A stretch of 64,000 nt of DNA from Clostridia bacterium (GCA_045533905.1 JAZSIR010000021.1:43283-107282), one strand, 5' to 3'; shown: positions 1,560 to 22,276, numbered from the stretch's first letter. The notes: generated by a model from the letters alone, not told the origin. A program made the numbers and translations.

Positions 1560-1647
1560 TTCTGACCCCTCATTTACGAAATAGCCATTGGATATTCCAA
1601 TGGCTATTTCAGTATATCACATATTTTGCTTTTTGCCAAGACCTAGT

Positions 1648-2757
1648 TTACACCGTTTTCCCCTTTTTTATAATAAACGGGCAACTTTCCGTACCGAAAA
1701 GACGGCGACCGGCACCGACGACAACATCCTTGTCCGTAATCACGCTCTCAAGCTCGGTCCCTTCTTCAATCACAGTACCCTGCATAATGATGGAATTTCG
1801 GATACGCGCGCCCTTTTTAATGACCACATCGCGGAAGATGATGCAGTTTTCCACCGTGCCGTCGATAACGGAGCCGTCCGCAACGAGTGAATCGCAGATT
1901 TTGGCTTCCTCGCCGTACATCGTGGGCACAGAGTCCTTAATCCGTGTTAAAATCTGGTTCTTGCCGTGGAAAAGCTCGAGGCGCACATCTTTTTTGAGAA
2001 GCTCCATATTCGTTTTGTAGAAGGTTTCCACGCTGTCAATCACCGAGATGTAGCCGTCTACACGGTAGCCGTAAATGCGATATTCCGAAAAGCCGTGCGC
2101 GATGACATCCTTCTTGAAGGAATACCACCCGTAGGTGATACCCTTTTCGATAAGCGAAATGAGAAGCTCCTTCTTCAGAATCATAAGCTCCAGCTGGGTG
2201 TTCTTCTCCTCCTCGTGCGGATACTGGTGAAACATCGTATCCACCACGCGGCCGTCTCCGTCCAGCATAATCTCAAGATTTCGCGTTTTGGTGTTCCGGC
2301 ACGCATACGCCACGGTAATATCGGCATTTTTCTCTTTATGATATTCCATAAACTTTTTAAGGTCTATGTTCATAACGATGTTAGAGTCGCACAGAATGCA
2401 ATATTCAGGCAGTGCGCTTTTAATAAAATCCATCACGCTGTTTAAGGCTTCGATTTTATTGCCGAAAAAGGCCGTGTCCGCATCGTGGAGGAACGGCGTC
2501 AGGAATTTGATGCCGCCGTTTTTGCGGTTTAAGTCCCAGTCCTTGCCCCAGCCGACGTGGTCCATAAGAGAGCCGTACTTATTTCGCGTGACAAGCCCTA
2601 TCGTATGCACATTGGCCCCTACGAGTGAGGAAAGCGCAAAGTCCACAATTCTGTACCGTGCACCAAACGGAATGGAAGCGAGCGTGCGGCCATCCGCAAG
2701 CTCTGAAAGGTCCAGCTTTTCATAGCTGTCTGCAAAAAGTATACAAAATGCGTTCAT
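1648..2757 (-). CDS. glgD: glucose-1-phosphate adenylyltransferase regulatory subunit GlgD
   Basis: 369-aa GlgC paralog lacking the GGxGxRL loop (IPFGARYRIVDFALSS). It lies between glgC and glgA, as is typical for Firmicutes. Confidence 0.88.
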   Translation of the reverse strand: MNAFCILFADSYEKLDLSELADGRTLASIPFGARYRIVDFALSSLVGANVHTIGLVTRNKYGSLMDHVGWGKDWDLNRKNGGIKFLTPFLHDADTAFFGNKIEALNSVMDFIKSALPEYCILCDSNIVMNIDLKKFMEYHKEKNADITVAYACRNTKTRNLEIMLDGDGRVVDTMFHQYPHEEEKNTQLELMILKKELLISLIEKGITYGWYSFKKDVIAHGFSEYRIYGYRVDGYISVIDSVETFYKTNMELLKKDVRLELFHGKNQILTRIKDSVPTMYGEEAKICDSLVADGSVIDGTVENCIIFRDVVIKKGARIRNSIIMQGTVIEEGTELESVITDKDVVVGAGRRLFGTESCPFIIKKGKTV

Positions 2758-2768
2758 TTCGCTCCCCC

Positions 2769-3980
2769 CTATTCTCTTCCATAGCCGGGCTCAATCATTT
2801 CTCCCGCGCGCACAATCTGTCCCTTTTTTACCACGGCGCCCTGCCCCACAACGGCAATGCCCCATTTTTCCCCTTCCGAAAGGCTTTCGGGCGCGGCACC
2901 GACCACGGCGCCTTCTTCAATCACGGCATCGTCCGCTACAATAGCGTAGCGCACCTTCGCGCCTTCCGCGATGCGCGTATTGCGCATCGCAACGGAGTAT
3001 TCCACCTCAGCACCCGCCTCCACCGAAACATTCGAAAACAAAATAGAGTAATTCAGTTTCCCGTTTACGAAGCAATCCTCCGTAACCATAGAATTGATAA
3101 TTTCCGCATTACTGCTTATGTAATGCGGCGTGGTTACATCGTGGCGGCAGTAAATGCGCCACAGGGGATCCCAGATATTAATGGCGATGCTCGGATTCAG
3201 AAGGTCCATATTGGCTTCCCAGAGATTTTCGATGGTTCCTACGTCCTTCCAGTACCCGTCAAAGGGATAGGCAAACATCCGCTCGCCCGCTTCGAGCATG
3301 GCGGGGATGACGTTTTTGCCGAAGTCATTGGCACTCGCCTCGCCCTTCTCTTCATCTTCAATCAGATACTGGCGAAGCTTTTTCCAGTTAAATATGTAAA
3401 TCCCCATCGAAGCCTTTGTGGATTTCGGTTCTTTCGGCTTTTCCTCAAATTCGAAGATAGAAAGGTCCTCGCGCGTGTTCATAATGCCGTAGCTCGAGGC
3501 CTCGTCAATCGGCACATCCATAACGGCAATCGTCGCATCCGCATTTTTCTCCTTGTGGAAGCGGAGCATCCTGGCATAGTCCATTTTATAGACGTGGTCG
3601 CCGGATAGCACGAGAACATACTCGGGATCATACTGCTCAATGAAGTTCATATTCTGGTACACAGCGTTTGCCGTGCCCTTATACCACGAGGCAGAGGAGC
3701 CCGTGTAGGGCGGCAGAATATATACACCGCCGTGCATTCTGTCTAAATCCCACGGCTGTCCGTTTCCGATATAGGAATTGAGCTCCAGAGGTCTGTACTG
3801 CGTTAAAACACCGACGGTGTCAATCCCCGAATTGGTGCAGTTCGACAGCGTAAAATCAATAATTCTGTACTTGCCGCCAAACGGGACCGCAGGCTTTGCG
3901 CGCTGATTCGTAAGTACATATAAGCGATTTCCCTGCCCGCCCGCAAGGAGCATGGCAATCATTTCTTTTTTCTTCGCCAC
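2769..3980 (-). CDS. glgC: glucose-1-phosphate adenylyltransferase
   Basis: 403 aa. Motifs [10 protein letters not shown] and [11 protein letters not shown], with a C-terminal left-handed beta-helix region. Confidence 0.95.
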
Positions 3981-4003
3981 CTTGGGTTTCCCTCCAAACT
4001 ATT

Positions 4004-5896
4004 TTACTTTTCGCCCTTCTTTGCTGCTTTTTTATAAAAATACATCGTGGAAAATGCGGGAAGCGAGAGCGCCACTGTATACGGCCGCCCGTGCATTTCT
4101 CCCTTTTCCGCGCGCACCTTTCCGTTTATAAGGCCGCTGCCGCCGTATTCTGCGGCATCTGTGGAAAACACTTCCTCATATACGCCGCGGCGTGGCACAC
4201 CGATTTTATAGTTCTCCTGCACTTTGCCGGAGAAGTTGCTGACCGCGAGCAGGAGATTGCCCTTCTTATCCTTCCGGAAGAACGAAATGATGTTATTCGA
4301 ATCATCGTCAAGCGCCGCCCAGTCGAATCCCTCCCACGAGGTGTCCTCCTCCCATAACGGCGCATACTTCTGATAGGTGCGGTTCATAGCCGCCACAAAT
4401 TTCTTATGCTTTTCGTGCGCTTCGAACGAAAGAAGGTTCCAGTCGAGCTCCCGTTCCTCGTTCCACTCGATAAACTGCCCGATCTCCGTGCCCATAAAGA
4501 GAAGCTTTTTGCCGGGATGCGCAAACATATAGCCGAGATAGGCGCGCACATTTGCGAATTTATCCTCGTATCCGCCCGGCATTTTCGATAAAATCGAAGC
4601 TTTGCCGTGCACCACCTCATCGTGTGAGAGGGGCAGAATAAAGTTTTCGGAAAAGGCATATGTTAAAGAAAATGTCAGGTTATTATGGACGCCGCGCCGA
4701 AAAAACGGGTCGCTTTGCATATAGCGGAGGGAATCGTTCATCCATCCCATATTCCACTTGTAGTTAAAGCCAAGCCCGCCCTCACTTACGGGGTGAGTGA
4801 TAAGAGGCCACGCCGTCGATTCCTCCGCAATCATCATAATGCCGGGGAACTCTGCGAACACGCGGGTATTGAGCGCCTGCAAAAAGCTTTTGGCTTCGAG
4901 ATTGCCGTTGCCGCCGTATTCGTTCGGGCGCCACTCGCCATCCTTCTTGCCGTAATCGAGGTAAAGCATCGAGGCGACCGCGTCCACACGGAGGCCGTCC
5001 ACGTGGTATTTGTCAAACCAGAAGGCGGCATTCGAAATTAAAAAGCAGCGGACCTCGTTTCTGCCATAATCAAAAATGCGCGTGCCCCAGTCGGGATGTT
5101 CTCTTTTCAAGGGGTCCGCATATTCATAAAGGCAGGTGCCGTCAAATTCATAAAGGCCGTGCGCATCCTTCGGGAAGTGGGCGGGCACCCAGTCGAGAAT
5201 AACGCCGATGCCGTTTTGGTGGCACAAATCCACAAAATGCATAAAATCCTTCGGGGTGCCGTATCGTGCGGTGGGGGCGTAGTACCCCGTCACCTGATAG
5301 CCCCAGGATTTATCGTAGGGATATTCGGAAACGGGCATCACCTCGATATGTGTAAAGCCCATTTCTTTTACATACGGAATCAGCTCCTCTGCAAGCTTTT
5401 CATAACTGAAGGCGTTGCCGTCGGCATACTTTCGCCACGAGCCGAGGTGCATTTCATATATACTGACAGGCGCGTGGTACGGCGCCTTCCGCGCTTCCAT
5501 CCACTTCTTGTCCTGCCATCTGTAGCCGGCAAGCGTATAGACCTTAGAGGCCGTGCCCGGCTTTTCCTCCGCGTGGAAGGCATAGGGGTCGGCCTTCAGA
5601 AATTCGCGGCCGTCGGCTAAAACAATTCTGTATTTATAACTGTCAAATTCCTTTACGCCTTCGACAACACACTCGAAAACGCCGCCGCCTGTGATGCGCC
5701 ACGCGCGGTTTCTGTAAGAATCCCAATCATTAAAAGAGCCGACAACATACACCTCTGCCGCGTTTGGACACCAGACGCGGAAGGTACACGTGTCGCCCTC
5801 CATATGCGCACCGAGATACGAATAGGCGGTATAATTCGTTCCTTCATGGAATAAATATTCCGCTAAAGCCGTCTCTTCTCTCCCTTTGCTCTCCAT
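4004..5896 (-). CDS. glgB: 1,4-alpha-glucan branching enzyme (GH13)
   Basis: 630 aa. GH13 motifs DWVPAHF, GLRVDAVASM, EESTAWP and LSHDEVVHGK. Confidence 0.95.
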   Translation of the reverse strand: MESKGREETALAEYLFHEGTNYTAYSYLGAHMEGDTCTFRVWCPNAAEVYVVGSFNDWDSYRNRAWRITGGGVFECVVEGVKEFDSYKYRIVLADGREFLKADPYAFHAEEKPGTASKVYTLAGYRWQDKKWMEARKAPYHAPVSIYEMHLGSWRKYADGNAFSYEKLAEELIPYVKEMGFTHIEVMPVSEYPYDKSWGYQVTGYYAPTARYGTPKDFMHFVDLCHQNGIGVILDWVPAHFPKDAHGLYEFDGTCLYEYADPLKREHPDWGTRIFDYGRNEVRCFLISNAAFWFDKYHVDGLRVDAVASMLYLDYGKKDGEWRPNEYGGNGNLEAKSFLQALNTRVFAEFPGIMMIAEESTAWPLITHPVSEGGLGFNYKWNMGWMNDSLRYMQSDPFFRRGVHNNLTFSLTYAFSENFILPLSHDEVVHGKASILSKMPGGYEDKFANVRAYLGYMFAHPGKKLLFMGTEIGQFIEWNEERELDWNLLSFEAHEKHKKFVAAMNRTYQKYAPLWEEDTSWEGFDWAALDDDSNNIISFFRKDKKGNLLLAVSNFSGKVQENYKIGVPRRGVYEEVFSTDAAEYGGSGLINGKVRAEKGEMHGRPYTVALSLPAFSTMYFYKKAAKKGEK

Positions 5897-6040
5897 TTTG
5901 TCACCTGCCTATATATGTCTTTGTATATATTGTATCATATCCGCTTATGTTTGTACAGAACTTTTATAAAAAGTTACCATTTTTGTGCAAATTTTATAGA
6001 CTTCCCGCGTGTTTTTCGTGCTTTTTATGCCCCGGATGTA

Positions 6041-6069
6041 TTGACAAACCGACGTGGGGAGAGTATTCT
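6041..6069 (+). promoter_or_regulatory. candidate sigma-A promoter for the GH13 gene (TTGACA-17-TATTCT)
   Basis: TTGACA at 6041-6046, a 17-nt spacer, TATTCT at 6064-6069. GGAGGG RBS before ATG 6105. Confidence 0.4.
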
Positions 6070-6104
6070 AAATACAAGCCTTACTGTCGGAGGGCACATT
6101 TTAT

Positions 6105-7946
6105 ATGCTGCAAGTTTTTTATGATTCGAAAAACGAAATATGCAAAAAACCGTTCGGCGCCGTGAAAACGGACGAAGCTGTCCGGTTTTCTTTGTATGTC
6201 TCGGGGGACGATTTGCCAAAAGGCGCTGCCTTCATCTATCGGGCGGACGCGTCACCGGATTCCATATATATCCCCATGACGCGCACGGAAGAACGGGAAG
6301 GTGGCGCCGTTTTTACGGCCGAGGTCTCTTTTCCCTGTGCGGATTTATATTTTTACCGCTTTGAACTGCAACGGCGCGAGGATGTTTTCTTTGTGGGCCT
6401 TTCGGGCGGCGTGGCCGCCATCGGCGACTGGCTCGGCGAGTGGCAGCTCACGGTGTACGATGCCGGTTTCCGGACGCCGCATTGGGCACGCGGCGGCATT
6501 CTATATCAAATTTTCCCCGACCGGTTCCGGAAAAGCGACGATTTTTCGCCGCTCCCTTCCAAAAACGAGCGAAAAATGCACGACGACTGGTATGATATAC
6601 CCGAATTTATCTATGACACGCCCGACTATCGCGCGAACGATTATTTCGGCGGCAACATTTTGGGTATTATAGGAAAAATTCCGTATCTGCAGACGCTGGG
6701 CGTGACGGCCATATACCTAAACCCCGTTTTTGAAAGCCCGGAATATCACCGCTACAGTACGGGTGATTACAAAAATATTGACCCCTATTTCGGCACAAAC
6801 GAACAGTTTGAGGCGCTTTGCACCGCGTGCCGCAAGGCAGGAATCCGCGTAGTACTCGACGGCGTTTTCAGCCACACGGGCGCAGACAGCGTATATTTTA
6901 ATAAGTATGGGCATTACGAGAGCGTAGGTGCGGCAAATTCCAAAGACTCTCCTTATTATAACTGGTACTCCTTTATAAAATACCCCGAAACGTACGAAAG
7001 CTGGTGGGGTTTTGAAAATTTACCGAATGTCCGCGAAACACGCCCTGATTATATGGAATTTATTACAGGAGAAGGCGGCGTTCTCTCCTTCTGGCAGGAG
7101 AAAGGCGCCGGTGGCTGGCGGCTTGATGTGGCGGATGAGCTTCCCGATGCTTTCCTCGACAGTCTCTATGCCCGCGTGAAAAAAGAGGACCCCGAAGCGC
7201 TCGTTATCGGCGAAGTGTGGGAGGATGCGACGAATAAATTCGCCTATGGTATCCGCCGCCGCTATCTACTCGGCCGGCAGATGGACAGCGTGATGAACTA
7301 TCCGTGGCGCACCGCCATTTTGGAGTTTGTAAAGGACGGCGATGCCGCGCTTTTCGAAAGCCGTCTCCTTTCTATCCTCGAAAACTATCCCGAGCCTGCA
7401 CTGCACACGCTTATGAACTCCCTTTCGACGCATGACACCGTGCGCGCCATAACGTTTTTTGGCGTGGAGCACGACGTGCCCGACGAAGAGAAGGGCAACT
7501 ATAAAATGACAGAGGAAGAATATCAAAACGGACGCGAAAAGCTCATGCGCGCCGCGTTTTTACAGTTTACGCTTCCCGGTATTCCTTGCATCTATTACGG
7601 GGATGAGGTTGGGCTTTCCGGCTTCCGCGATCCGTATTGCCGCATGGCGTACCCGTGGGGGCGCGAGGACGCGGCACTCTTTACGTTCTTCAAAAGCCTT
7701 GCCGCAGTACGCTCGGCGCACAGGGAGGACTTTTCTTCTCCTTTTAAGCCATATGCAAGAGAAGACGGACTCTACGCCTTTCTTCGCGGCGGTCTCCTCT
7801 GCGCGATAAACGAAGGAAAAGAGGCGGCGCCGCTTCTTTTCCAAGACCGCGAGTGCATATTCTCCCACGGAAAAGTGGAATTTCAAGATGATGGCGCACG
7901 CCTTTCGCCGGGTGCTTTTGTGCTACTTAAAAAGACTGCAAACTGA
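6105..7946 (+). CDS. GH13 alpha-glycosidase (neopullulanase/cyclomaltodextrinase-like)
   Basis: 613 aa. Motifs YQIFPDRF, DGVFSHTG, GWRLDVADE, IGEVWED and LSTHDTVR. Confidence 0.85.
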   Translation: MLQVFYDSKNEICKKPFGAVKTDEAVRFSLYVSGDDLPKGAAFIYRADASPDSIYIPMTRTEEREGGAVFTAEVSFPCADLYFYRFELQRREDVFFVGLSGGVAAIGDWLGEWQLTVYDAGFRTPHWARGGILYQIFPDRFRKSDDFSPLPSKNERKMHDDWYDIPEFIYDTPDYRANDYFGGNILGIIGKIPYLQTLGVTAIYLNPVFESPEYHRYSTGDYKNIDPYFGTNEQFEALCTACRKAGIRVVLDGVFSHTGADSVYFNKYGHYESVGAANSKDSPYYNWYSFIKYPETYESWWGFENLPNVRETRPDYMEFITGEGGVLSFWQEKGAGGWRLDVADELPDAFLDSLYARVKKEDPEALVIGEVWEDATNKFAYGIRRRYLLGRQMDSVMNYPWRTAILEFVKDGDAALFESRLLSILENYPEPALHTLMNSLSTHDTVRAITFFGVEHDVPDEEKGNYKMTEEEYQNGREKLMRAAFLQFTLPGIPCIYYGDEVGLSGFRDPYCRMAYPWGREDAALFTFFKSLAAVRSAHREDFSSPFKPYAREDGLYAFLRGGLLCAINEGKEAAPLLFQDRECIFSHGKVEFQDDGARLSPGAFVLLKKTAN

Positions 7947-9103: not shown

Positions 9104-9157
9104 TTATTCTGTTTTCTCCGCTTCCGAGAATATATTCTCAATAATTCCCAAATCCCA
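9104..9157 (-). repeat. R0: possible degenerate fifth copy of the spoIVB tail, now forming the last ~14 codons of the 9104-10423 gene
   Basis: Hand alignment of 9110-9144 against R1 11290-11324 gives 29/35 identical positions, in frame. The encoded ...GIIENIFSEAEKTE* compares with the tail ...[16 protein letters not shown]. Confidence 0.3.
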
Positions 9158-10423
9158 ACAAAGTCTTGATAAAACATATTTATCTCTTATATCCTTTGTG
9201 GCTTTAAAGGTTATTGGCAAAAGTTCTTCATCGAGTCCTATTTCCGCCATTGTTTTCGGAAGACTGGCCTTGTCAAAAAGATTTTCGAGTTCCGAAAACG
9301 CAGGCAGCTCCTCCTCGATAATTTGCAAAATTGCATCCCACTTGGAAAGCAGTGTCCCAAGTCTTTTTCTGTGACTTTCCAAATTATATTTCTGTTCTTT
9401 CTCTTCGAGCGCAATCATCGCTTCTGCACCTTTGCCGAGAAATTTTCTCAATGTTTCACTCCACGCCGCAAAATCAAACGCTTCCGCATACGCCAAAGCT
9501 TTTTGCCTTTCAGGCGTACAGTTTTTTATTTTCTCATAAAGTTTAACGGCTATCAAAGTACCAACCGCACATTGAATGCCGTGAAATTCTACCGCCTCTC
9601 CGAATTCTACGCCACGCATATCCCAAATATGAGAAAAATAATGCTCAACGCCGGAAGCAGGACGGGACATTCCCGCAAATTTCATAGCAGCTCCGCATAT
9701 AACCAATCCCTCAAATACTGCCTTGACCGCATTTTCATCCCGCTGCAAAAGCCCCTCGGCATTATCAACACACTTCTTTAAAGAACTTCTTACAAGCTCT
9801 GCTACCTTCTCGCAATAATATTCGCCGTTTATAAGATGCGAGATGCGCCATTCACAAATGGAAACATACTTTGCAAGCATATCACCAAGTCCCGAAAGCA
9901 TCATTTTTATGGGGGCATTACACAAAATGTCCGTATCGCCAAAAATCACATCGGCACATTTACTGTCGAGAGAGGTTTTGAGGCCATCCATTGTCATAGA
10001 GGATGTTGCAGAGGCATACCCGTCCATAGAGGGCGCTGTTGCCACTATGATATAGAGCCTTCCGGTAACGTTTGCAACAATTTTGCCAATATCGTTGATT
10101 ACACCCGAGCCGACTGCCAAAATTAAATCACAATCTTTTTTGTAGTGCATAATGGCACTGCCGGTACTTGTTTCGTCCGGATGTAAAATTTCATCCCTGT
10201 AAATGTGGGAAAGTATCTTCGTTCCGGAAGAGGCAAGAATTTTACAAACCGCATCGCCTGCCGCGGTGAATGTGTTTTCATCCGCAATCAAAAACACTTT
10301 TTCCGCATGCAGTTTTTGTAACACCTGCGGCAATTGATGGATTACCCCTTTGCCGACTATCACTTCCGATTCGAATGTGTGTGCTTTTCCGCATGTACAC
10401 TGTTTTGTATGTATCAAATTCAT
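9104..10423 (-). CDS. iron-dependent alcohol dehydrogenase family, sn-glycerol-1-phosphate dehydrogenase (AraM)-like
   Basis: 439 aa. Motifs LILAVGSGVINDIGK, APSMDGYAS and GVEHYFSH. Divergent from a DeoR regulator. Confidence 0.65.
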   Translation of the reverse strand: MNLIHTKQCTCGKAHTFESEVIVGKGVIHQLPQVLQKLHAEKVFLIADENTFTAAGDAVCKILASSGTKILSHIYRDEILHPDETSTGSAIMHYKKDCDLILAVGSGVINDIGKIVANVTGRLYIIVATAPSMDGYASATSSMTMDGLKTSLDSKCADVIFGDTDILCNAPIKMMLSGLGDMLAKYVSICEWRISHLINGEYYCEKVAELVRSSLKKCVDNAEGLLQRDENAVKAVFEGLVICGAAMKFAGMSRPASGVEHYFSHIWDMRGVEFGEAVEFHGIQCAVGTLIAVKLYEKIKNCTPERQKALAYAEAFDFAAWSETLRKFLGKGAEAMIALEEKEQKYNLESHRKRLGTLLSKWDAILQIIEEELPAFSELENLFDKASLPKTMAEIGLDEELLPITFKATKDIRDKYVLSRLCWDLGIIENIFSEAEKTE

Positions 10424-10534
10424 ATCATCACCAATTTAATTTTACCAAATATAGAGAGAATAATCAATACTTGAATATTATCTTGACAAAACAATCATCA
10501 ATTGATTATAATAGTGATTAAATAATAGAAACGG

Positions 10535-11242
10535 GTGATTATTTTGTCGATACATACTAGAGAAGAACTGTATATCAAACTCTTGGCGGAAAGAGAGCAT
10601 ACAGTTCGGGACCTGGCAAATAAACTTTTTGTGAGCGAACCTACGGTGCGGCGTGATATACTTGTTTTGGAAAAGAAGGATATTATCACACGCAAAAGAG
10701 GTAGGGTAAATCTCAAAATAAATTCTGCTGATAAACGCATTCCGTTATTTATTCGCGATATGGAAAACAACCCATCTAAAAGGCAAATAGCGCTTAAGGC
10801 TTTATCTTACATTAAAGATGGCGATACGATTATACTGGATGCCTCCACCACGGCCTACTGCCTGTTGCCGCATCTTGTAAATTTCAAAGAACTTTTCGTA
10901 ATAACGAACGGCGCAAAAACAGCTATTGACCTAGCGGCAATGGGGATCAAAACCATATGCACGGGCGGGGAGCTTACCGAAGAATCCTTTTCGTATGTCG
11001 GAACGGATGCCGAGAGCGTTTTAAGTCGCTATAATGCGGATGTAGCTTTTTTCTCCTGCAGAGGGATAACAGAGGATGGTTTTGTTACAGATAACTCTAT
11101 TTTAGAAAATTCTATGCGAAAAATTATGATAAGGAATGCAAGAAAGAGTTACCTTCTTTGTGATAAAAGTAAGCTTGGAAAAACCTATCTGAATACACTT
11201 TGCCACAAAAATGAACTGGATGGCGTTATAACGGATACGTAA
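10535..11242 (+). CDS. DeoR-family transcriptional regulator
   Basis: 235 aa with a GTG start. N-terminal HTH (TVRDLANKLFVSEPTVRRDILVLEKKDII) and a C-terminal DeoR sugar-binding fold (ILDASTTAY). Confidence 0.85.
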   Translation: MIILSIHTREELYIKLLAEREHTVRDLANKLFVSEPTVRRDILVLEKKDIITRKRGRVNLKINSADKRIPLFIRDMENNPSKRQIALKALSYIKDGDTIILDASTTAYCLLPHLVNFKELFVITNGAKTAIDLAAMGIKTICTGGELTEESFSYVGTDAESVLSRYNADVAFFSCRGITEDGFVTDNSILENSMRKIMIRNARKSYLLCDKSKLGKTYLNTLCHKNELDGVITDT

Positions 11243-11247: not shown

Positions 11248-11279
11248 AGGGCGTGCCTCACTATATTGAGGCACGCCCT
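11248..11279. terminator. bidirectional stem-loop between the DeoR gene stop and the stop codon of tail copy R1
   Basis: AGGGCGTGCCTCA-CTATAT-TGAGGCACGCCCT, followed by TTTT. Confidence 0.6.
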
Positions 11280-11280: not shown

Positions 11281-11439
11281 TTACTTATTTGTTTTTCCCA
11301 CTTCCGAGAGCATATTTTCAATAAAAATCCCATACCCGCGCGTGGGGTCATTGACGAAAACGTGTGTTACAGCTCCAATGAGTTTGCCATTCTGAACGAT
11401 TGGGGAGCCGCTCATGACTGTTGTCAATGGGGGACAACA
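11281..11439 (-). repeat. R1: displaced copy of the spoIVB 3' end (11281-11415) plus the 7-7-7 inverted repeat (11419-11439)
   Basis: The minus strand reads [44 protein letters not shown] (stop at 11281-11283). The inverted repeat is TGTTGTC-AATGGGG-GACAACA. Confidence 0.85.
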
Positions 11440-11485
11440 AATTTTGAGGAATTTTCAAATCCAAGTTATGTTATATGTACTTTTA

Positions 11486-12694
11486 TCAATCAACTACACA
11501 ACCATTGGCATCCACCCATTTTTTACTGTCTACGTCAACACAAATCAACAACTTATTTAAATCAGTATCGAAAATCTGCTGTCCAAAAGACGGATAATAG
11601 CTGAGTCTTTCTGCAGTGCTGCAAACAGTTTTGTGGGTCATATTGATTGTGCGAAAGCCTTTACCTGAGCCATTTTCAAAAAGTTTAAAATTGGTTTCGT
11701 TTGTATGATTCCAGTCAGGCTGAAGTGTATATTCAATTCTTCCGCAAAAAGCTCCCGGGTGAATTTCACGCATAACATCCCCGAGTTTTCCTCCGGGGGT
11801 TTGGGTAGCCAAACGTTCGATGTTAAAGCTTATCATAGAAACTTCCTGACCGCCGATTAGAATATTACCATCACGGCCATGGTCACCACATTGATTAAAC
11901 AATGGTAAGTTCACATTTCTTTCGTCGCAACAGTTAATCATGGTGATAGGATGATTGTATCCACAATTAAAATCGTAGTTACCAAAAGTATAGCCATAAA
12001 CATTATGTGCTGCCGCACAATTTAACATAACAACATGTTCTCCGCCCACCTGAATTCCTTCATAGAAACCACCTGATGTAACATTGTCATAGCGAACAAT
12101 AAAGTTATTGCTACCATCGGTCATTGTAAGTCCGATGCAGCCTTCTTTTGCCATATCTGTTACACCCAAATATGTATTATCACGCTTTCCGCGAAGTCTG
12201 ACATTTTTCATCTGAACGCGGTCGCAACGACGCAAATCTATGCAGCGAACAGCTTTCTGATTATGCGCCAATGTCATAGTAATATTTTCGAGATTCAGAA
12301 CCGCTCCGCTATATAAACCTCTGTTTTTCCATTCGGTACGAAAAACAGAATATTCACCTTCTTCTATTTTAGAAAGTGCTTCCTCAGAAACATCAATCTG
12401 TACGCCCTCACGATTTTGTTCGAAGCTGAACGATTGTCCGATAATTGCAATTTCCTTATATAAAGCAGGTATCCTAATAGCTGCCATGGGTCCGCCATCT
12501 TCAAAATCATAAAAATCATCTACACAGTAAACACCGTTCAAAAGATAAACATTCTTTCCTTCTTCTGCGGCAGTCTTAATAGCTTTGTTTATCACAAGTT
12601 CATCATTTTTCCCTGAACAAACAAAATCAATGCCATCCTTTTCATTAAATTTTGAATTCGATGCAGCAACAGTTATAAAAGGTGAAAAACTCAT
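11486..12694 (-). CDS. right-handed parallel beta-helix (pectin-lyase fold) protein, probable glycan-degrading enzyme
   Basis: 402 aa. Repetitive beta-helix turns (NLENITM, RCDRVQMKNVRLRG, GLTMTDGSNNFIVRYDNV, VVMLNCAAAHN). No signal peptide. Confidence 0.5.
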   Translation of the reverse strand: MSFSPFITVAASNSKFNEKDGIDFVCSGKNDELVINKAIKTAAEEGKNVYLLNGVYCVDDFYDFEDGGPMAAIRIPALYKEIAIIGQSFSFEQNREGVQIDVSEEALSKIEEGEYSVFRTEWKNRGLYSGAVLNLENITMTLAHNQKAVRCIDLRRCDRVQMKNVRLRGKRDNTYLGVTDMAKEGCIGLTMTDGSNNFIVRYDNVTSGGFYEGIQVGGEHVVMLNCAAAHNVYGYTFGNYDFNCGYNHPITMINCCDERNVNLPLFNQCGDHGRDGNILIGGQEVSMISFNIERLATQTPGGKLGDVMREIHPGAFCGRIEYTLQPDWNHTNETNFKLFENGSGKGFRTINMTHKTVCSTAERLSYYPSFGQQIFDTDLNKLLICVDVDSKKWVDANGCVVD

Positions 12695-12733
12695 AAAATC
12701 TACTCCTTTTTAATTTTTATTCGGGTTAATACC

Positions 12734-13582
12734 TTAAATATTTAAAAATACTATGGATGCAAGTCCTGTTAAGAAACCTGCAAACTGTATTTTTGTCAGT
12801 TTTTCTTTATAAAATACTTTTGAAACAACATATGTAACAATAATTCCCCCTGCCGAAATCAGCGGAAACATAACGGATACAGCCATTGTTCCCGATAACA
12901 CCATAACAAGCAAATTAACAATACCATTCATAGCACCGGAAGCAACAGTAATAAACCGAGCATGATAAAAATTGCTTTTGAAATTATCTTTATTTGTTAC
13001 CAAAGTGGCTACTGCAAAAATCAAAAACACAATTGCGAGAGAAATTATCATAAATTCATTTTTGTATTCACCGTCGAATTTAATTTGTTGCATTTTCTGA
13101 ACGGTTGTACAAAGACCATTGCCGGCAAACGAAAGAAAAACAAATAAAAGCCATTTTGGTGTAATAGGACACTTGTCATTATTCTTGTTCACAAGGAAAA
13201 GCGAAATCGCAAGCAATCCAAGACCAATTATAAAATATATGCTTATTGGTTCCCTGAGAAAAGCAATTCCGTAAAAGGTTGGAATCATAAGTGAATATGA
13301 AATCATAAGTGACGAAAGTGACAAAGAACCATTTGCAATAGCAAGCATACCAGATAGTGAAGCGGTTGAAAATGATAAGGCAAAGGCTATCGAATATGGA
13401 ACAATCCCGGGATTCCAGCTAATATTCTTTGAAGTAACAAGAAAGAACATCATTGAAAAAAGCGCTGTAAGGGATAAAAAAAGATATGTACCATTTGTAC
13501 CTGTCTTTTCTGTATAGAATTTTTTAGCAATGCTCTGACCGGAAACGCCGGCTATTATAATTATCAAATATATAATGTTCAT
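12734..13582 (-). CDS. DMT/EamA-like 10-TM membrane transporter
   Basis: 282 aa. Entirely hydrophobic segments in a two-fold 5+5 pattern. Confidence 0.6.
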   Translation of the reverse strand: MNIIYLIIIIAGVSGQSIAKKFYTEKTGTNGTYLFLSLTALFSMMFFLVTSKNISWNPGIVPYSIAFALSFSTASLSGMLAIANGSLSLSSLMISYSLMIPTFYGIAFLREPISIYFIIGLGLLAISLFLVNKNNDKCPITPKWLLFVFLSFAGNGLCTTVQKMQQIKFDGEYKNEFMIISLAIVFLIFAVATLVTNKDNFKSNFYHARFITVASGAMNGIVNLLVMVLSGTMAVSVMFPLISAGGIIVTYVVSKVFYKEKLTKIQFAGFLTGLASIVFLNI

Positions 13583-13739
13583 ACGTTATGGCTCTATTTT
13601 CATCTGATACTACAAACAATCCCCATCAACTATATAAATTGTACCACTACATATTAATTTTTGTAAATAAATTATATTCTTTAAATATTGCAATATCTTC
13701 CCAACTATTATATAATATTGTTTAGAGGAGGCGTTAAAA

Positions 13740-14546
13740 ATGATTATAAAATACAATACAGAAAAGTTGCGACGTATTATAACCGATATAACCACCTTGA
13801 CTGGAATAAGCGTAGCCGTATTAGATACAGACTATAGCACCATAATAAGAGGACCACAGAGTAAAGAGTATTGCTCATTGCTGCAAACAATAGAAATTAA
13901 AAAAAAGCATTGCAAACAGTGTGATACAAGAATCTTAAACCGATGCCGTTCCTCTAAAAATTTGGAAAGTCACATATGCAGTGCGGGTCTTTATGATTCT
14001 GCAATGCCCATTATAAAAGACGATAACATCGTCGGATATGTCATAATGGGGCAGGTACGTTCTATGGACTCTCCTGCTCTGCCTAAATATTTACCTGATA
14101 CAGATCCTCAAACACTTAAAAAGTTAAATAAAATCTATGAACAAACTCCATTTATTTCAAAAAATCAATTGGAAGCACTGTATGATCTTCTGCCTCATAT
14201 TCTATTTGATAGTGCGATTGAGTTTGTGTACGATCCTGTTGCAATTGATATACTTAAGTTTATTGATGCAAATTTGCAAGCGGATTTAAGTATAAAACAG
14301 CTATGTGAAAGATTTTATATATCAAAAAACCGATTATATGAAGTTTTTCGGAACAATCTAGGATGCACCGTTACAGGATATATTAACGAACAACGCATCA
14401 AGCAAGCAAAAGAATTACTTAAACAATCAGACGATTCTATCTGTAATATTGCCGAAAAGGTAGGTATTTACAATTATACATATTTCTGTAAACTATTTAA
14501 AAAGCTCAGTGGAGTCACACCCACTGAATACAGAAAAAAGCCATAA
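13740..14546 (+). CDS. AraC-family regulator with an N-terminal PocR-type sensor domain
   Basis: 268 aa. PocR-like segment with a Cys-rich stretch (CSLLQ...HCKQCDTRILNRC...HICSAGLYDSAMPII...GYVIMGQV) and a C-terminal AraC HTH (GIYNYTYFCKLFKKLSGVTPTEYR). Confidence 0.8.
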   Translation: MIIKYNTEKLRRIITDITTLTGISVAVLDTDYSTIIRGPQSKEYCSLLQTIEIKKKHCKQCDTRILNRCRSSKNLESHICSAGLYDSAMPIIKDDNIVGYVIMGQVRSMDSPALPKYLPDTDPQTLKKLNKIYEQTPFISKNQLEALYDLLPHILFDSAIEFVYDPVAIDILKFIDANLQADLSIKQLCERFYISKNRLYEVFRNNLGCTVTGYINEQRIKQAKELLKQSDDSICNIAEKVGIYNYTYFCKLFKKLSGVTPTEYRKKP

Positions 14547-14561
14547 AAGGTTTACGTAAAA

Positions 14562-14590
14562 ATGCTCACTTATGAAATATAAGTGAGCAT
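14562..14590. terminator. stem-loop between the AraC stop and the R2 stop codon
   Basis: ATGCTCACTT-ATGAAATAT-AAGTGAGCAT, a 10-bp perfect stem. Confidence 0.5.
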
Positions 14591-14595
14591 TAATG

Positions 14596-14751
14596 TTATT
14601 TAATTTTCTCCGCTTCAGCCAGCATATTCTCTATAAATATCCCATATCCACGTGTCGGGTCATTTACAAAAACGTGTGTCACAGCTCCAATGAGTTTGCC
14701 ATTCTGAACGATTGGGGAGCCGCTCAAGACTGTTGTCAATAGGGGACAACA
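14596..14751 (-). repeat. R2: displaced copy of the spoIVB 3' end (14596-14724) plus the 7-7-7 inverted repeat (14731-14751)
   Basis: The minus strand reads [42 protein letters not shown]. The inverted repeat is TGTTGTC-AATAGGG-GACAACA. Confidence 0.85.
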
Positions 14752-14753: not shown

Positions 14754-16949
14754 TCAGATAAGTTTTTCTAACTCTGCCAGAATTCTATCGGCAATATTCT
14801 TCATCCCAATATCTCCGGGATGGTTTGCAACACCCTCGTGGCTAAATAATCCTATTGCTTTCATTTCATTAAGTTCACCCAGGTCTCCAAGTTCAATACA
14901 GGTCAAATTATTTTCTTTTGCATATTCTAAAATGATTTTATCACCGGGATGTTTCCAAAATCCTGTTGTTAATATAACTTTGGCCTTTAATGATTTGTTT
15001 AAATAGTCAAGCAGTTCTCCCAGTTCACGTTTGAATATTTCACAGTCAAATTCATTTTGCGGACAATTTTCAATAAAACGCATCACGATAATATCAGCAT
15101 CAAAGCTGCGGGCTTCTTCAAAGAGATAATGTTTGGTTGAGCCATTTTTATATTCCATTTCCCATTCCGCAACCTGACAGATGCAAAACGCCGCATCGGC
15201 TGATTTTTCCGAAACCGCAGACATCACACGATGAACATAGTCGTTTTCGGGACAGGAAGCCGCCATTCCGCATTCGTTGTACCAGCCTATCTGCGGGCGG
15301 AAGCCGTGGAGTGTCATCGAATTTCCCACAAACATCACTCGTTTACCTTTGCCATTCAAATTAAAAAATCGAATATGCCCACTATTATTGAGTTGATGAC
15401 CGGCACAAACCGTATTTTTCTGAAGTTGTTGGTATTCAGATGTTTTATAACAGATATTCTGCGTAAACTCTCCTGTAACGAATTGGTTCTCGTCAAAGTT
15501 TTTAAGAAGTTCTTGGTTCCAATACAAATTCTCAATCAATATATCTTTGGTTTGGTGGGTATCATCATAACCTTTGAAATATAGCGTTGGCTTTTGGCGA
15601 CCAAAGAGGTGAATGTTACTGAACAACATATTTCGATTGATGCCTCTGCGTGTGCCACCAGCAGAATACTCATGATGGAAACTGCTGACAATATGTATAA
15701 GATCAGGTGCATAATCTAAATTGGTGTTTTGATATGTTTCTGAATCTTTATTTTGAATAACACCTATTGGAATCACATCATCGTACTCTATATTTATATT
15801 TTTATACACCACATCATGCACATCGGCATAATCCACGTTGGAGCAGTCAAGTACATGACCGGTAACGTGTATGATGTTGCAGTTCTTAAAAACAATATTG
15901 CTTATTTCTTCCGCCCTTGTTTCTGCCCCGATTTCAAGACTTTTTCCCCAGTCGTTCCATATGGTGCAATTTTTTATAACTGTGTTCTTAAAAACATCGT
16001 AAGCTTTTCCTTTACGATACATTGCCTCTTTTACCGCTTTTTCAACATCATCTTCATGATAGCAATCAAAGCCTTTTACACAGATTGAATCATCAAAGGT
16101 TCGTAAAAAGCAATTATCTATAACAACATCTTCGCAATTGTGCATATCAATACCGTCTGAATTGTAACGCCAGCAACCAATAATTTTAACATTTGAAATA
16201 TGCATATTTTTGCAACCGATTGGTCTTATATTATAAACCAATGAATCGCGGATGGTGATGCCTTCAATTTTAATATTGTTACAATATTCAAGTTGAACTG
16301 TGTGCTCTCGTTTTGCATTATTGACTGCCGAAATATTATTTTCTGCATTATACTCAAAAAGTATTTTCTCAGTGTTTTTACTGTTGTCAAGAATACCTCT
16401 GCCCAAAATTTTTATGTTTTCGGAATCTATTGATTTTACACAGGCATAAACCACCGCACCTTCGTCAATAAACAATGTCTGATTGCTTTTTAATACAATT
16501 TCTCCGGCATAGTGTTCACCTTTGCCGAAATATATAACATTAGTATTGTTATAATCAATGTCATAGCAAGGTGTGGGATCAGAAAAAATATGAAGTGCAT
16601 TATTTCTGCCATACGGCTCAACGGTAAAATAAGCAGGCTTTTCAAGAGTAAATGTGATTTTTCCGTCTTTGATTTCCGGTGTTATACCCAATGACAACGG
16701 GCGTATAATAACTTCCTCAAAGGGATTTTGAGGAATTATTTCAAAAGACACCGATTCATCTGAAGAAAGTGAAAGGAAATTAACAAGTTCGGTTTGAGCT
16801 TTACTACGCTGATGCCCCGGCCAGCGACGGTTAAAAGGGAATGCAGACACACGGGCAGTATCAAGTGTTACCGGTTGTCCGTTCACTTTAACCTTATAAT
16901 TTTCTATGTGGTCTTTGGTTTGTGTTACAGGATAAATATTTATCGACAT
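14754..16949 (-). CDS. GH28-like beta-helix glycosidase fused to a C-terminal SGNH/GDSL-type esterase domain
   Basis: 731 aa. [32 protein letters not shown] resembles the GH28 NTDGID/DDC motifs. The C-terminus has [12 protein letters not shown] and [13 protein letters not shown] (SGNH blocks I and V). Confidence 0.65.
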
Positions 16950-17101
16950 ATCTTTGACTCCTTGTATTTTAGAATTACTATGACAATTATAATATTAAAG
17001 CAAGTAGAAAAATAGGTAATTTTTTAATATTAAAGGTATATATTTATTGACATTTTTGAGGATGCAATATATAATAGTCGTTATAAAAACCCCAAAGGAG
17101 T

Positions 17102-18004
17102 TTGATATGTGTGTATGTTTATAAAATCAAAATAAATTGTTTGCCAAAACTAATATGGGCTTGCGAAGTTACTGTTGAAAACTATGAATGGAGAAATCGC
17201 AATAGCAAAGATGTGTTGGAAATTTCGTATTCAAAATTTGACACAAAATCTGTTACCCTTAATAACAATAACTTTCTACTGAAAAACAACACTCTATCCT
17301 GCATAGTGGCTGATGAAAACCGTACAGCCTCCTGCAAATCGGGAAAGCCAATAACAATTGTATCAGTTGCTGTTAGTTTAAGTGATTTTAAATACCAACC
17401 ATGCGAACTTGTTGAAGCTGACTTGAGTGATGAAACAGTTCTTATATTGCCTTTTTATTTGGAAGAGTTGCCAATTAATTATGAACTTGAAATAATAAAG
17501 AAACTTCATGAAATCATTAAACTATCTTCCGCTGATTCGGAAAACAGAAAGATTGCTTTAGCATCTGCATTCTTTAACCTGATATGTGAGATTGATAAAA
17601 TAACACGAAATAATATCTGCAGCCAAAACAACAGCGTCAATTATTATGTAAAAAAAATTGATTACATTATCGAATCCAGATATAATGAGAAAATCACTCT
17701 CCAGTCAGTTGCATCAGAGTTGAATATATCACCGGTTTACCTGTCAACCATTTATAAAAGCATAACCGGTATAAATTTTTCGGAGCAACTTCTTATTGTG
17801 CGGATGAAACACGCAGAAAATTTATTGTTTGATCAAAATATTTCCACAACAAAGGTTGCAGAACTTTGCGGATTTTGCGATGAAAATTATTTCAGGAAAA
17901 GATTCAAACGTTTTTTTGGTATGAATGTAAGCGAGTGCAGAAAAATCAAAAACGGATTAACGCTCTACCACGAAAAACCTCAAAGAAAAAATGACAGCTG
18001 CTAA
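17102..18004 (+). CDS. AraC-family transcriptional regulator
   Basis: 300 aa; the start may be GTG 17111 after RBS AAAGGAG. C-terminal HTH: ISPVYLSTIYKSITGINFSEQL...CGFCDENYFRKRFKRFFGMNVSECR. Confidence 0.8.
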   Translation: MICVYVYKIKINCLPKLIWACEVTVENYEWRNRNSKDVLEISYSKFDTKSVTLNNNNFLLKNNTLSCIVADENRTASCKSGKPITIVSVAVSLSDFKYQPCELVEADLSDETVLILPFYLEELPINYELEIIKKLHEIIKLSSADSENRKIALASAFFNLICEIDKITRNNICSQNNSVNYYVKKIDYIIESRYNEKITLQSVASELNISPVYLSTIYKSITGINFSEQLLIVRMKHAENLLFDQNISTTKVAELCGFCDENYFRKRFKRFFGMNVSECRKIKNGLTLYHEKPQRKNDSC

Positions 18005-18020
18005 ATTTAGCGGCTGTCAT
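17991..18020. terminator. stem-loop overlapping the AraC stop, immediately before the R3 stop codon
   Basis: ATGACAGCTG-CTAAATTTAG-CGGCTGTCAT with one mismatch, followed by TTTT. Confidence 0.45.
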
Positions 18021-18026
18021 TTTAAA

Positions 18027-18203
18027 TTAAAAATTTTCTGAATTCTTTTCTTCAATGCTTCGTGCAGCCGCTAACATATTTTCAATAAATATCCCATAAC
18101 CTCTTGTTGGATCATTTACAAATACGTGTGTCACAGCTCCCACAATTCGGCCATTTTGCAGGATGGGTGAACCAGACACGAGTGTTGTCAATATGGGACA
18201 ACA
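18027..18203 (-). repeat. R3: displaced copy of the spoIVB 3' end (18027-18176) plus the 7-7-7 inverted repeat (18183-18203)
   Basis: The minus strand reads [49 protein letters not shown]. The inverted repeat is TGTTGTC-AATATGG-GACAACA. Confidence 0.8.
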
Positions 18204-18217
18204 ATTTTTTATATTTT

Positions 18218-19027
18218 TTATAATTTACGCATTTTTCCGGGTGTTATTTTATAAACATTTTTAAAAGTGTTCGACATATGAGACTGTGAATAGAATCCGC
18301 ATAGGTGTGAGATTTCGGAAATTGAAATATCCGTTGTGAGTAACATTTCTCGTACTCTTATCAATCTTTGTTTTGTAATATATTTATGTAGCGTTATCCC
18401 TTCGTTTTTTACAAAAACTTCATTAAGATAATATGGATGATAGTGCAATTTATCTGAGATTTCCTTTATATTTACAGATATGTTATTTTCAACGATTTCT
18501 TTAATTTTTTCACATAGAGGTACTTTGTGTTGATTGTTTTCTTTGTTTCTCGACAACTTTAACAAAATTATATTCAAATACAAATTTTCTATATCTTGTT
18601 TTTTTGTGCTTTTTTTACTTTCATTGTAAATGCTTTCTATATCGTTCCCTATTTCTTTTGCATTATTTACATATATTACATCAGAAAAAATATCTGGAAT
18701 TTCAGCATTATACCGAAATATAGTGTCATAATTAAACTCACCCGCTTTTTCCGGTACCATTACTCCTATATGCGAAAACTCTTGCGTAAAATCAAAGTTA
18801 ACTGTATAAAATATTATGGTTTCATTTGAATGAATATGATAGGGAAACCCTGAAGGATAATAAATTAGAGTATTTTTACAAAGAGGGTATGTTTTATTGT
18901 TACATTCAAAAACACCATTACCACTCAAAATATAAATCATACGGCAATCCCTCGCAATTACCATGTTATCTATAAAATATTTTGTTTTTGCAATATATCT
19001 TACAAAAGGCTCATAATACAAAGGCAT
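18218..19027 (-). CDS. AraC-family regulator (cupin sensor plus HTH)
   Basis: 269 aa. N-terminal cupin-like region ([17 protein letters not shown]) and C-terminal HTH ([25 protein letters not shown]). Confidence 0.8.
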
Positions 19028-19127
19028 ACAACCAACTCATTTCTTTGTTTTTTGATAAAATAACTTCGTTATATGCATTGATTATAACATAATTAAATAT
19101 TATAATCAAGAAAAATAATAAAAGAAG

Positions 19128-21431: not shown

Positions 21432-21934
21432 ATATTTTTGCATGGACAAGTGGTATTCTCGGAATAACTGCAAATGTGATAATCTATCAGCAAGAAAGCG
21501 GTAAACGAGTTTTGATATACAAGCTTATTTCTGATTTTATATGGGTTTTTCACTATTATACACTTAACGCATATTCGGGGATGGCGGTAGCAATGGTAGG
21601 TATTTTAAGAGAAATTGTTTTCTTAACCCAACAAAAAACGGAAATATCAAAAATCTGGCTGATAATTTTCATGGGCGTTGCGATGGTATGTGCATCCTTC
21701 ACATGGAAAGGTGTAATAAGCTTTCTGCCCGCCACAGCTTCTGTTTTGTCGGTTATAAGCTTTTGGAAAGCAAATCCGGTATTTACAAGAATAATTGCCT
21801 ATCCTATTTCTATTTGTATGTTAACATACGATATTGTATATAAATCATATACAGGAATTACTAACGAAGTATTAACTTTTATTTCATCTACAATAGGTAT
21901 AATACGAATGCGTAAAAAGGTAAATTTAATATAA
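21419..21934 (+). CDS. YgjV-family small inner-membrane protein
   Basis: 171 aa with ~5 TM segments. Overlaps the preceding gene by 13 nt. Similar in architecture to the backbone gene at 43494-44024. Confidence 0.5.
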   Translation: MVGMNIFAWTSGILGITANVIIYQQESGKRVLIYKLISDFIWVFHYYTLNAYSGMAVAMVGILREIVFLTQQKTEISKIWLIIFMGVAMVCASFTWKGVISFLPATASVLSVISFWKANPVFTRIIAYPISICMLTYDIVYKSYTGITNEVLTFISSTIGIIRMRKKVNLI

Positions 21935-22039
21935 AGGGGTAATAACAATGAGCGAATTAAGAATGGGTGTAATTAATTAGGAAAGAACTTTAATACGCTA
22001 TTGATGCCGGGATTATGAAAAAAATGGCCTAACAGATTT

Positions 22040-22276
22040 TCCTGAAGATACCGGTATCAGGGTTATACAAAGACAGAGTGTATCCCCGGTCCAACAAATC
22101 AGGAGTTAAAAGATGGTGCTGATATGTTTTGCAGATGGATGGAAGAAAATATAAGCTATATGAAAAGGATGCATATCCTGACATTTGCATGGAATGAATT
22201 CGAAGAAGGAGCATGGCTGTGCCCCACATGTATTGATGACTCAAGTATAGACGATAGCCGTATTAAAGCATTTTAA
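22040..22276 (+). pseudogene. frame-disrupted C-terminal remnant of a GH99-like/WbsX-family gene
   Basis: Hand translation gives ...DGADMFCRWMEENISYMKRMHILTFAWNEFEEGAWLCPTCIDDSSIDDSRIKAF*. The AWNEFEEGAW segment resembles the WNEW.EG motif. Upstream frames are broken by stops. Confidence 0.3.

Follow-up and report, generated by a model that had tools for sequence, protein, structure and literature searches.

A palindrome at the ends of cassettes stacked in spoIVB of gut Clostridia as a probable arm of a serine-integrase attachment site

The spoIVB locus and its four modules

The DNA analysed here, called the window, is a stretch of 64,000 nucleotides from a Clostridia bacterium (GCA_045533905.1, JAZSIR010000021.1:43283-107282), and positions are counted from its first letter. 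It carries a live copy of spoIVB, the gene of the SpoIVB peptidase, beside which four modules are lined up, each consisting of a regulator and metabolic genes. A module begins with a tail, that is a copy of the 3' end of spoIVB, continues with its cargo and ends with the palindrome TGTTGTC-N7-GACAACA and a linker, upon which the next tail follows. This palindrome is the subject of the present work, and its proposed role is that of the element-side arm (P arm) of a serine-integrase attachment site. The live gene, the tails and the palindromes all read on the minus strand, which is the gene sense used below. In gene order the features are the following.

26523-27722, minus strand: live spoIVB, encoding a SpoIVB peptidase S55 of 399 aa (Pfam PF05580 Peptidase_S55, E 4e-76)
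26523-26651, minus strand: foreign tail of the live gene, its last 43 codons, joined to the host-like body at the MSGSP codons
22534-26522, minus strand: cargo of module 4 (G+C 31-37%), with an AraC regulator (25729-26499, plus), a glycyl-radical enzyme (23396-25594, minus) and an activase (22515-23396, minus)
22510-22530, minus strand: palindrome 4, TGTTGTC CCCTATT GACAACA in gene sense, distal terminus of module 4
22504-22509, minus strand: linker 4, GTCGTG, with the putative crossover at or next to its terminal TG
22375-22503, minus strand: displaced tail 4, SGSPILQNG...AEKIK*, followed by a terminator-like hairpin
18207-22374: cargo of module 3 (G+C 28-35%), with an AraC regulator (18218-19027, minus), a 767-aa protein (19128-21431, plus) and a YgjV-family membrane protein (21419-21934, plus)
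18183-18203, minus strand: palindrome 3, gene-sense spacer CCATATT, distal terminus of module 3
18027-18176, minus strand: displaced tail 3, with a longer C-terminus; linker CTCGTG at 18177-18182
14754-18026: cargo of module 2, with a GH28-like protein of 731 aa (14754-16949, minus) and an AraC regulator (17102-18004, plus)
14731-14751, minus strand: palindrome 2, gene-sense spacer CCCTATT, distal terminus of module 2
14596-14724, minus strand: displaced tail 2; linker GTCTTG at 14725-14730, terminator hairpin at 14561-14591
11443-14595: cargo of module 1, with a 402-aa protein (11486-12694, minus), an EamA transporter (12734-13582, minus) and a PocR-AraC regulator (13740-14546, plus)
11419-11439, minus strand: palindrome 1, gene-sense spacer CCCCATT, distal terminus of module 1
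11281-11412, minus strand: displaced tail 1, the last of the array; linker GTCATG at 11413-11418, strong GC-rich terminator at 11248-11279

Besides its peptidase domain the live SpoIVB protein has a PDZ domain and the catalytic motif GMSGSP. It is at the MSGSP codons that the composition of the gene switches. The G+C content at third codon positions (GC3) is 0.71 in the body (26652-27722), ranging from 0.66 to 0.80 in every 150-nt slice, and 0.33 in the tail, and the live gene is therefore a chimera of a host-like body and a foreign tail which came with the adjacent module. A like switch, from a GC-rich body to an AT-rich tail, is present in L033, one of the related loci, which are designated by L or P numbers below. 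Altogether the last ~150 nt of spoIVB occur in five copies spaced 3.3-4.3 kb apart, the displaced ones being 129-150 nt long; tail 1, with a GC3 of 0.49, lies between the host and module values. The region from 11.4 to 26.5 kb has 28-39% G+C against about 50% in the host. As seen from the five tails and the foreign tail of the live gene, the elements of the array stand in tandem, with direct repeats of the target 3' end between them and the youngest element beside the gene; comparable arrays are found in L010, L034, L037, L131, and L132.

An exact search of the 64 kb returned four copies of the palindrome (11419-11439, 14731-14751, 18183-18203, and 22510-22530), and allowing up to two mismatches added none. 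Dinucleotide-preserving shuffles gave an expectation of 0.10 matches, and four matches were reached in none of 100 shuffles. These results bear out the inverted repeat and its positions as given in a preliminary description of this DNA, the spacers of which also read identically on the plus strand (in order of position AATGGGG, AATAGGG, AATATGG, and AATAGGG). All four copies sit at junctions with displaced tails. The gap between palindrome and SGSP codons, which had been put at a variable 3-6 nt, has to be corrected: the Ser codon is in every case 6 nt away and the NTG codon 3 nt, the gap being filled by linkers of the form NNN-NTG, namely, GTCATG, GTCTTG, CTCGTG, and GTCGTG. Two cargo genes do end in or beside the palindrome as described, the open reading frame (ORF) of the radical-SAM activase having its TGA stop inside palindrome 4, at 22515, and the GH28-like ORF stopping 2 nt short of palindrome 2, at 14754. 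At the live spoIVB junction, which reads ...GGCATCGTGCAAGGTATG|TCGGG, no trace of the motif is found, again in agreement with the earlier account; the codons in front of this junction are those of a normal spoIVB.

The modules carry no recombinase of their own. Pfam analysis of 37 window ORFs detected regulators, enzymes, transporters, and housekeeping proteins only, without any recombinase or transposase domain, and tblastn of the window with the three integrases of locus L043, described below, gave no match; a recombinase within modules or window was ruled out on these grounds. The 402-aa protein of module 1 has no Pfam match and the 767-aa protein of module 3 no significant one. Structured RNA at the junctions was likewise rejected, as a search against Rfam (E<=1, positions 8000-29000) yielded no match.

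Distribution of the palindrome and place of exchange

One genome per species was scanned with the palindrome plus GGNTCNCC as query, which yielded 50 matches in 46 stretches. In 47 of the 50 an in-frame SpoIVB tail follows the palindrome, all of them in metagenome-assembled genomes (MAGs) of uncultured gut Clostridia, the hosts being Acutalibacteraceae, Oscillospiraceae, Lachnospiraceae, Congzhengia, Ructibacterium, and unclassified MAGs. Many of these loci show live spoIVB and then one to three palindrome-tail junctions. A scan of metagenomes with the palindrome alone (TGTTGTCC-N4-TTGACAACA, 18 fixed bases) returned 81 stretches, among which 19 matches have a SpoIVB tail and the characteristic spacers; the other ~60, with unrelated spacers, different G+C and no tail, fit what chance gives for 18 fixed bases. 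Carriage by phages or plasmids was rejected with 0 junction matches in viral contigs and none in the PLSDB plasmids. In 430 kb of related loci no copy of the motif lies off a tail, except for three chance matches in unrelated contigs.

The preliminary description had proposed to search for the motif away from the junctions, and had regarded homologous arrays lacking it as an argument against a role in recombination. Restriction to the junctions holds in the window, in the 430 kb of related loci and in the public collections, and the motif recurs in arrays of dozens of genomes, which therefore favours a junction-specific element. Its reading as a module-side terminal site related to recombination, which would lie beside the tail if the module were circular, is supported as well.

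The spacer of the palindrome is also conserved, with CCCTATT in the majority, CCTACTT paired with the LLSGSP...ETAQSVA type of tail, and CCCCATT and CCATATT occurring more rarely. The noncoding 21-mer is fixed while the tails diverge by 20-30%, mainly at third codon positions, which by comparison of the sequences indicates that the motif is under selection and that each tail evolved inside a working gene. Since most junctions were retrieved by patterns fixing the arms, the invariance of the arms is partly a selection effect, and ten sites chosen otherwise make up the unbiased set. For strain-level variation or an empty-site comparison a close relative was lacking, as the host SpoIVB stands alone in the protein collection, its nearest relative reaching 71% identity; in the relatives of about 60% identity (L047-L049) the contigs stop before any second tail.

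In some cargo modules conserved noncoding stretches are located 110-220 nt upstream of the palindrome; the window modules are without them. They form family A (L005, L008, L016, L026, L027, and L041), family B (L002, L015, L019, L025, L029, and L034), which has an extra inverted GGGACAACA half-site about 125 nt upstream, and family C (L003, L007, L022, and L032), with TTGACAAA-type repeats that are also present in the spacer between integrase and palindrome in L043. Several Acutalibacteraceae-type arrays contain mini-modules of 930 nt with a single ORF of 209 aa (L019:3894-4520, L029:508-1134, and L034:1302-1928). These ORFs were considered as hidden resolvases and dismissed for want of a Pfam match.

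The place of exchange can be read from copies of the same module in different genomes. From the cargo end through spacer, both arms and linker such pairs keep 97-99% identity, which then collapses. This distal breakpoint falls at -4 to +2 relative to the first base of the Ser codon in the pairs L007/L022, L036/L039, L005/L041, and L031/L060, and an alignment of L001 with L026 agrees with it. As identity runs through palindrome and linker up to this point, the crossover must lie not within the palindrome but beyond it, at the TG of the NTG codon or next to this. Live and displaced junctions often share only this TG, the Ser codon being for instance AGC in one and TCN in the other. One and the same module is found in different species at the identical site.

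At the proximal end, L033, L036, and L039, which have unrelated spoIVB bodies, have in common a module whose copies match at 96-100% starting at about +21 of the tail, and they differ at 3-7 positions within +2 to +20. Judged as exchange at a short core, the distal breakpoint is sharp (-4 to +2) and the proximal boundary is blurred over +2 to +21. In addition, adjacent tails of one array often share blocks of identity which start at position 0, extend for 23-100 nt and give way to wobble divergence; examples are tails in L003, L008, L026, and L027 and the window tails 11281-11412 and 14596-14724. The blurred end and these blocks may come from gene conversion acting between tails, in addition to a precise exchange. 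Insertion by homologous recombination as the main route, be it of Campbell type or by double crossover, was rejected, since every distal breakpoint lies at the outermost 5' edge of the homology; in addition, homologous exchange or gene conversion seems to take place between tails.

Integrase trios, proposed mechanism and alternatives

The 264 ORFs surrounding the genome matches were surveyed in two halves by Pfam and PHROG families. The commonest family is that of AraC-type regulators (10 in each half). The first half contained no recurring integrase; in the second, three ORFs combine Resolvase, Recombinase and Zn_ribbon_recom domains, and all three stand in tandem in L043. This trio ends 40 nt before a palindrome, after which a GC-rich, host-like displaced tail follows. 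Homologues of LSR3, the last of its three large serine recombinases (51-67% identity), were found in eight contexts (P0121, P0123, P0133, P0163, P0219, P0207, L043 itself, and the L051-type loci), and in all eight a trio is followed by a version of the motif, a linker and a SpoIVB tail. In the relatives the trio ends about 40-230 nt before the motif, in one of them about 1 kb. The Ser codon of the tail comes 65-87 nt past the detected LSR3 match in most cases, about 250 nt past it in P0207 and about 1 kb, with an intervening ORF, in P0219. In L135-137 the displaced tail is directly followed by spo0A, which we take to be the usual neighbour of spoIVB. A serine recombinase gene at the element end beside the site is thus absent in the window and present in its relatives. 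Serine-integrase triplets are an established integration module in integrative and conjugative elements (ICEs), where they give repeats of 2-8 bp (PMC4701971).

Among 82 displaced-tail junctions sampled, 13 have a trio, and about 44 with enough sequence upstream have none; nor do the annotated arrays L131, L132, and L047 encode any recombinase. Both kinds of element share attachment sites. In L141, L143, and L145 a trio element is directly followed by a recombinase-less module of 3.8 kb (L141:11111-14521) with the same unusual site variant, TGTTGTCCCATCCTTGACACA, and the 27-nt site of L043 is identical to those of cargo-only modules in L011, L019, and L025. The L141-type module codes for an AAA_15/AAA_21 ATPase, an HD-domain protein and others, which suggests cargo of a defence type rather than a catabolic one. 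In each of the seven retrieved loci that reach upstream of the first integrase gene (L133-L145), the trio is preceded by a small DUF6870 gene (74-89 aa), the product of which is a candidate accessory or directionality factor.

Taken as a whole, the palindrome is probably the P arm of the attachment site of serine-integrase elements that target spoIVB, and would have been kept by non-autonomous cassettes. The elements would be directed to the catalytic-serine codons (G-M-S-G-S-P) of the gene. In a circular element the cargo end would be followed by the palindrome, a 6-nt linker with NTG at its end, the SGSP tail, a terminator and then the start of the cargo. If it recombined with the live gene, by exchange at the TG before the Ser codon or next to it, the host body would be joined to the element tail and the gene left intact, the cassette replacing the last 43 codons and the old tail ending up behind the palindrome of the incoming element. 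The right half-site would be SpoIVB coding sequence in both partners, so that the live junction would stay a target and insertions would stack with the newest beside the gene. Inner junctions would resemble the element's own site, which would explain stacking and might permit excision of the front cassette. The enzymes are most likely the three tandem large serine recombinases encoded directly upstream of the motif in autonomous members; the trio would bind the motif and use the TG as crossover dinucleotide. The window would then hold four non-autonomous cassettes of a regulator and catabolic genes, stacked by successive integrations, which have kept only palindrome and tail and would depend on integrases supplied in trans.

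Several observations weigh against this reading. Copies of one module have tails whose first 12-21 nt are hypervariable or mosaic, and the identity blocks of adjacent tails are anchored at position 0; a clean 2-bp exchange explains neither pattern. The L056 junction has GCG in place of NTG. There is no integrase in the 64 kb of the window, and mobilisation in trans is an inference. The commonest cargo site (spacer CCCTATT, linker GTCGTG or GTGGTG) was never beside a trio in the sample of 82 junctions. The standard model of serine-integrase half-sites predicts no perfect 7-7-7 palindrome within one half-site, and comparison by hand of the P arm with the tail side revealed no convincing dyad symmetry, about 10 of the first 25 nt of the tail matching; such symmetry as exists lies within the P arm. 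For a heteromeric trio, symmetry of the site might be dispensable. As a second choice, a dimeric partner, either one of the paralogues or the DUF6870 protein, may be the reason for the perfect palindrome.

Such a partner leads to the alternative that the palindrome is an accessory operator beside the true crossover site, where a small protein would bind as a dimer and govern synapsis or direction; a directionality factor, one of the trio paralogues and the DUF6870 protein are candidates. We consider this unlikely, though not far-fetched. A perfect palindrome of 21 bp does fit a symmetric dimer better than one serine-integrase half-site, the DUF6870 gene stands before the trio wherever the loci extend that far, and TTGACAA-like repeats occur upstream of the motif in some families. 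However, cargo-only modules retain nothing else on that side, where their ORFs run up to or into the palindrome, so the palindrome and 6 nt have to be enough for the element-side half-site. The integrase-adjacent variants with an 8-nt spacer, moreover, lose the symmetry and keep TGTTGTCC and TTGACA in register with the crossover.

A site folded as a single strand, already mentioned as an option in the preliminary description, would be nicked about 6 nt 3' of the stem by an HUH relaxase, Rep protein or transposase, or used by an integron-type integrase, the cassette moving as single-stranded DNA from an oriT- or attC-like site. The succession of hairpin, short linker and breakpoint resembles the nic sites of relaxases and IS200/IS605 right ends. 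Conservation includes the loop sequence, subfamily B has a stem lengthened to 9 bp (-8.4 kcal/mol, z -4.95), and cassette-like arrays without a recombinase would suit such a system. Against these points stands the weakness of the usual 7-bp stem as DNA (-4.9 to -5.8 kcal/mol, z -1.1 to -2.7). Covariation of the arms, named earlier as a check, is not seen: the ten sites not picked by an exact-arm pattern keep 3-6 of the 7 pairs and have changed on one side, with a single compensatory, double-sided exception, so it is the sequence including the loop that is conserved and not the pairing. Neither the recurrent Pfam and PHROG families nor the annotated arrays include an IntI, relaxase, Rep or Y1 transposase; among the 264 neighbouring ORFs HUH, relaxase and IntI families do not recur, and such recombinases as do are serine integrases. 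The weak hairpin, the one-sided changes and the 8-nt-spacer variants which keep the register thus favour sequence-specific recognition of the motif as duplex DNA, and the folded site appears quite improbable.

It is more improbable still that the motif has no role in recombination and is a small terminator, an insulator or the operator of a regulator at the end of each cargo operon. Two of the four window copies pass a permissive terminator scan on the plus strand, which is antisense, with a T-run following, and every module has an AraC-type or other regulator. But the identical 21 nt end modules of unrelated cargo and regulators and also follow integrase genes, T-run and flank are not conserved, the stem has two G-C pairs out of seven, and the distance of the motif from the recombination breakpoint is constant to the nucleotide. 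Among Xer/dif-like sites, parS, the Spo0A box, the TnrA box and the sigma-70 -35 element none fits or explains this fixed register.

Hardly any credence is given to the suggestion that the 7-7-7 unit is the core site of a tyrosine recombinase with a 7-bp overlap flanked by inverted binding sites: the geometry is the one known from the lambda core and, as expected of an overlap region, subfamilies each conserve their spacer, yet strand exchange inside the 7-nt spacer is contradicted by breakpoints outside the palindrome and by identity spanning both arms and linker, neither arm is present at the live junction, and exchange between palindromes could not have given the live gene its foreign tail. 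Nor was a tyrosine recombinase found in the window, in the annotated arrays or among the families common to at least two of the 264 neighbouring ORFs (a single occurrence at one locus being possible), and the autonomous relatives examined carry serine trios.

Surroundings of the array, significance and known systems

Near-consensus promoters of sigma-70 type (TTGACA-17/18-TATAAT, 11-12 of 12 positions) at 10483-10512, 17047-17075, and 25683-25711 precede regulators of the modules, a DeoR and two AraC genes, and from their sequence the cassettes seem to come with expression signals of their own. Past the last displaced tail a DeoR regulator and Fe-ADH_2 (9104-11242) have 40-43% G+C against about 50% in the host; the pair mirrors the first module of L131 (Sugar-bind regulator, Fe-ADH_2 and RpiB) and may be an older module which has lost palindrome and tail. 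In its C-terminus (...LGIIENIFSEAEKTE*) and terminator, the Fe-ADH_2 ORF looks similar to the ends of SpoIVB tails. A sixth tail relic at 9105-9159 (repeat family D2), which coincides with this C-terminus, was nevertheless rejected, as the Fe-ADH_2 homologue in L131 ends alike, and the resemblance is probably native or due to chance. The spoIVB gene of the window is without an adjoining spo0A, and genes for glycogen and amylase follow the island (138-7946). A YgjV-family membrane protein is encoded twice, in module 3 (21419-21934) and in host DNA (43494-44024).

If the proposed role of the palindrome holds, spoIVB is a previously undescribed and widely used insertion platform in uncultured Clostridia of gut and rumen, where pre-regulated metabolic operons are stacked and exchanged across species, with glycyl-radical enzymes, glycoside hydrolases, sugar isomerases, and transporters as examples of cargo. 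The signature TGTTGTCC-N4/5-TTGACA-N9-SGSP codons could be used to find such cassettes and their boundaries in metagenomes. The three-integrase class is abundant in gut bacteria; to our knowledge the architecture of its sites and the division of labour among its members have not been worked out, and a candidate attachment site for the module is proposed here. The 27-nt arm together with a short conserved coding target might also serve as a compact substrate for testing integrases as genome-engineering tools. Site-specific accretion, borrowing of integrases by non-autonomous elements and replacement of gene ends are already known in principle.

The closest known system, judged by analogy, is that of the staphylococcal cassette chromosome (SCC) and psiSCC elements at rlmH. 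SCC elements are moved by the large serine recombinases CcrAB/CcrC. Like the spoIVB arrays, they enter a conserved gene at its 3' end and leave it active, stack in tandem beside it, repeat the target 3' end at each boundary and have short inverted repeats at their termini; in both systems some members lack a recombinase and the enzymes are large serine recombinases. Composite SCC/SCCmec islands at rlmH (orfX) include psiSCC elements without ccr genes (10.1101/336396). The spoIVB elements differ in their target, which belongs to anaerobic spore-formers, and in the repeat, which comprises the last 43 codons (~130 nt) plus a terminator instead of the ~15-18 bp of SCC. They would employ three integrase paralogues, where SCC has one or two, and their cargo consists of regulated catabolic operons, in one array of AAA_15/AAA_21 ATPase and HD genes, and not of resistance genes; their mobility is predicted from sequence.

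Next in likeness are triplet-integrase ICEs and ICEs that accrete with cis-mobilizable elements (CIMEs). The former, streptococcal elements of the Tn5252/Tn1549 superfamily (PMC4701971), likewise have three tandem Resolvase, Recombinase and Zn-ribbon genes in the same orientation at one extremity and integrate site-specifically into a protein-coding gene with a very short shared core. They disrupt their targets (mutT, traG, and hsdM), whereas the spoIVB elements would restore theirs with a tail of their own, and arrays of recombinase-less cassettes have not been described for them. A literature search found no publication linking spoIVB with a serine recombinase, and spoIVB is unreported as a triplet target. 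Accretion of ICEs with CIMEs is exemplified by the 3' end of fda in Streptococcus thermophilus (PMC5704250, PMC6323972). There, as in L141, non-autonomous elements bounded by attachment sites lie in tandem with an autonomous one at a gene 3' end and are thought to borrow its recombinase; these ICEs, in contrast, use tyrosine integrases with longer, arm-containing attP sites, and CIMEs are usually decayed ICEs and not compact cassettes of regulator plus operon in arrays of four or more.

The likeness to integrons is one of logic and not of mechanism. They too gather cassettes without recombinase that end in a short palindromic site, at a fixed platform with the newest nearest to it, and exchange them between species. 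At spoIVB no IntI or folded attC-type site is involved, the crossover lies outside the palindrome, the cassettes carry their own promoters and regulators, and the platform is the inside of a gene whose end is replaced. It is conceivable, and put forward tentatively, that gut Clostridia possess a serine-integrase-driven counterpart of the integron. In this the target would be regenerated and an attP-like junction left after each cassette; self-regulated catabolic or defence cassettes with a 27-nt arm and a replacement tail would be stacked, excised and traded between species by trios supplied in trans from conjugative elements, and the tracts of identity between tails would come from repair at breaks made by the integrase.

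Elements intervening in sporulation genes of Firmicutes, such as skin in sigK, SPbeta in spsM, gin in gerE, and yin in yabG (PMC5595907, PMC4191935, PMC10747680), are related to the spoIVB elements by their serine recombinases and their choice of target. They split the gene and must be excised during sporulation, whereas at spoIVB the gene is kept whole and its function would not require excision.

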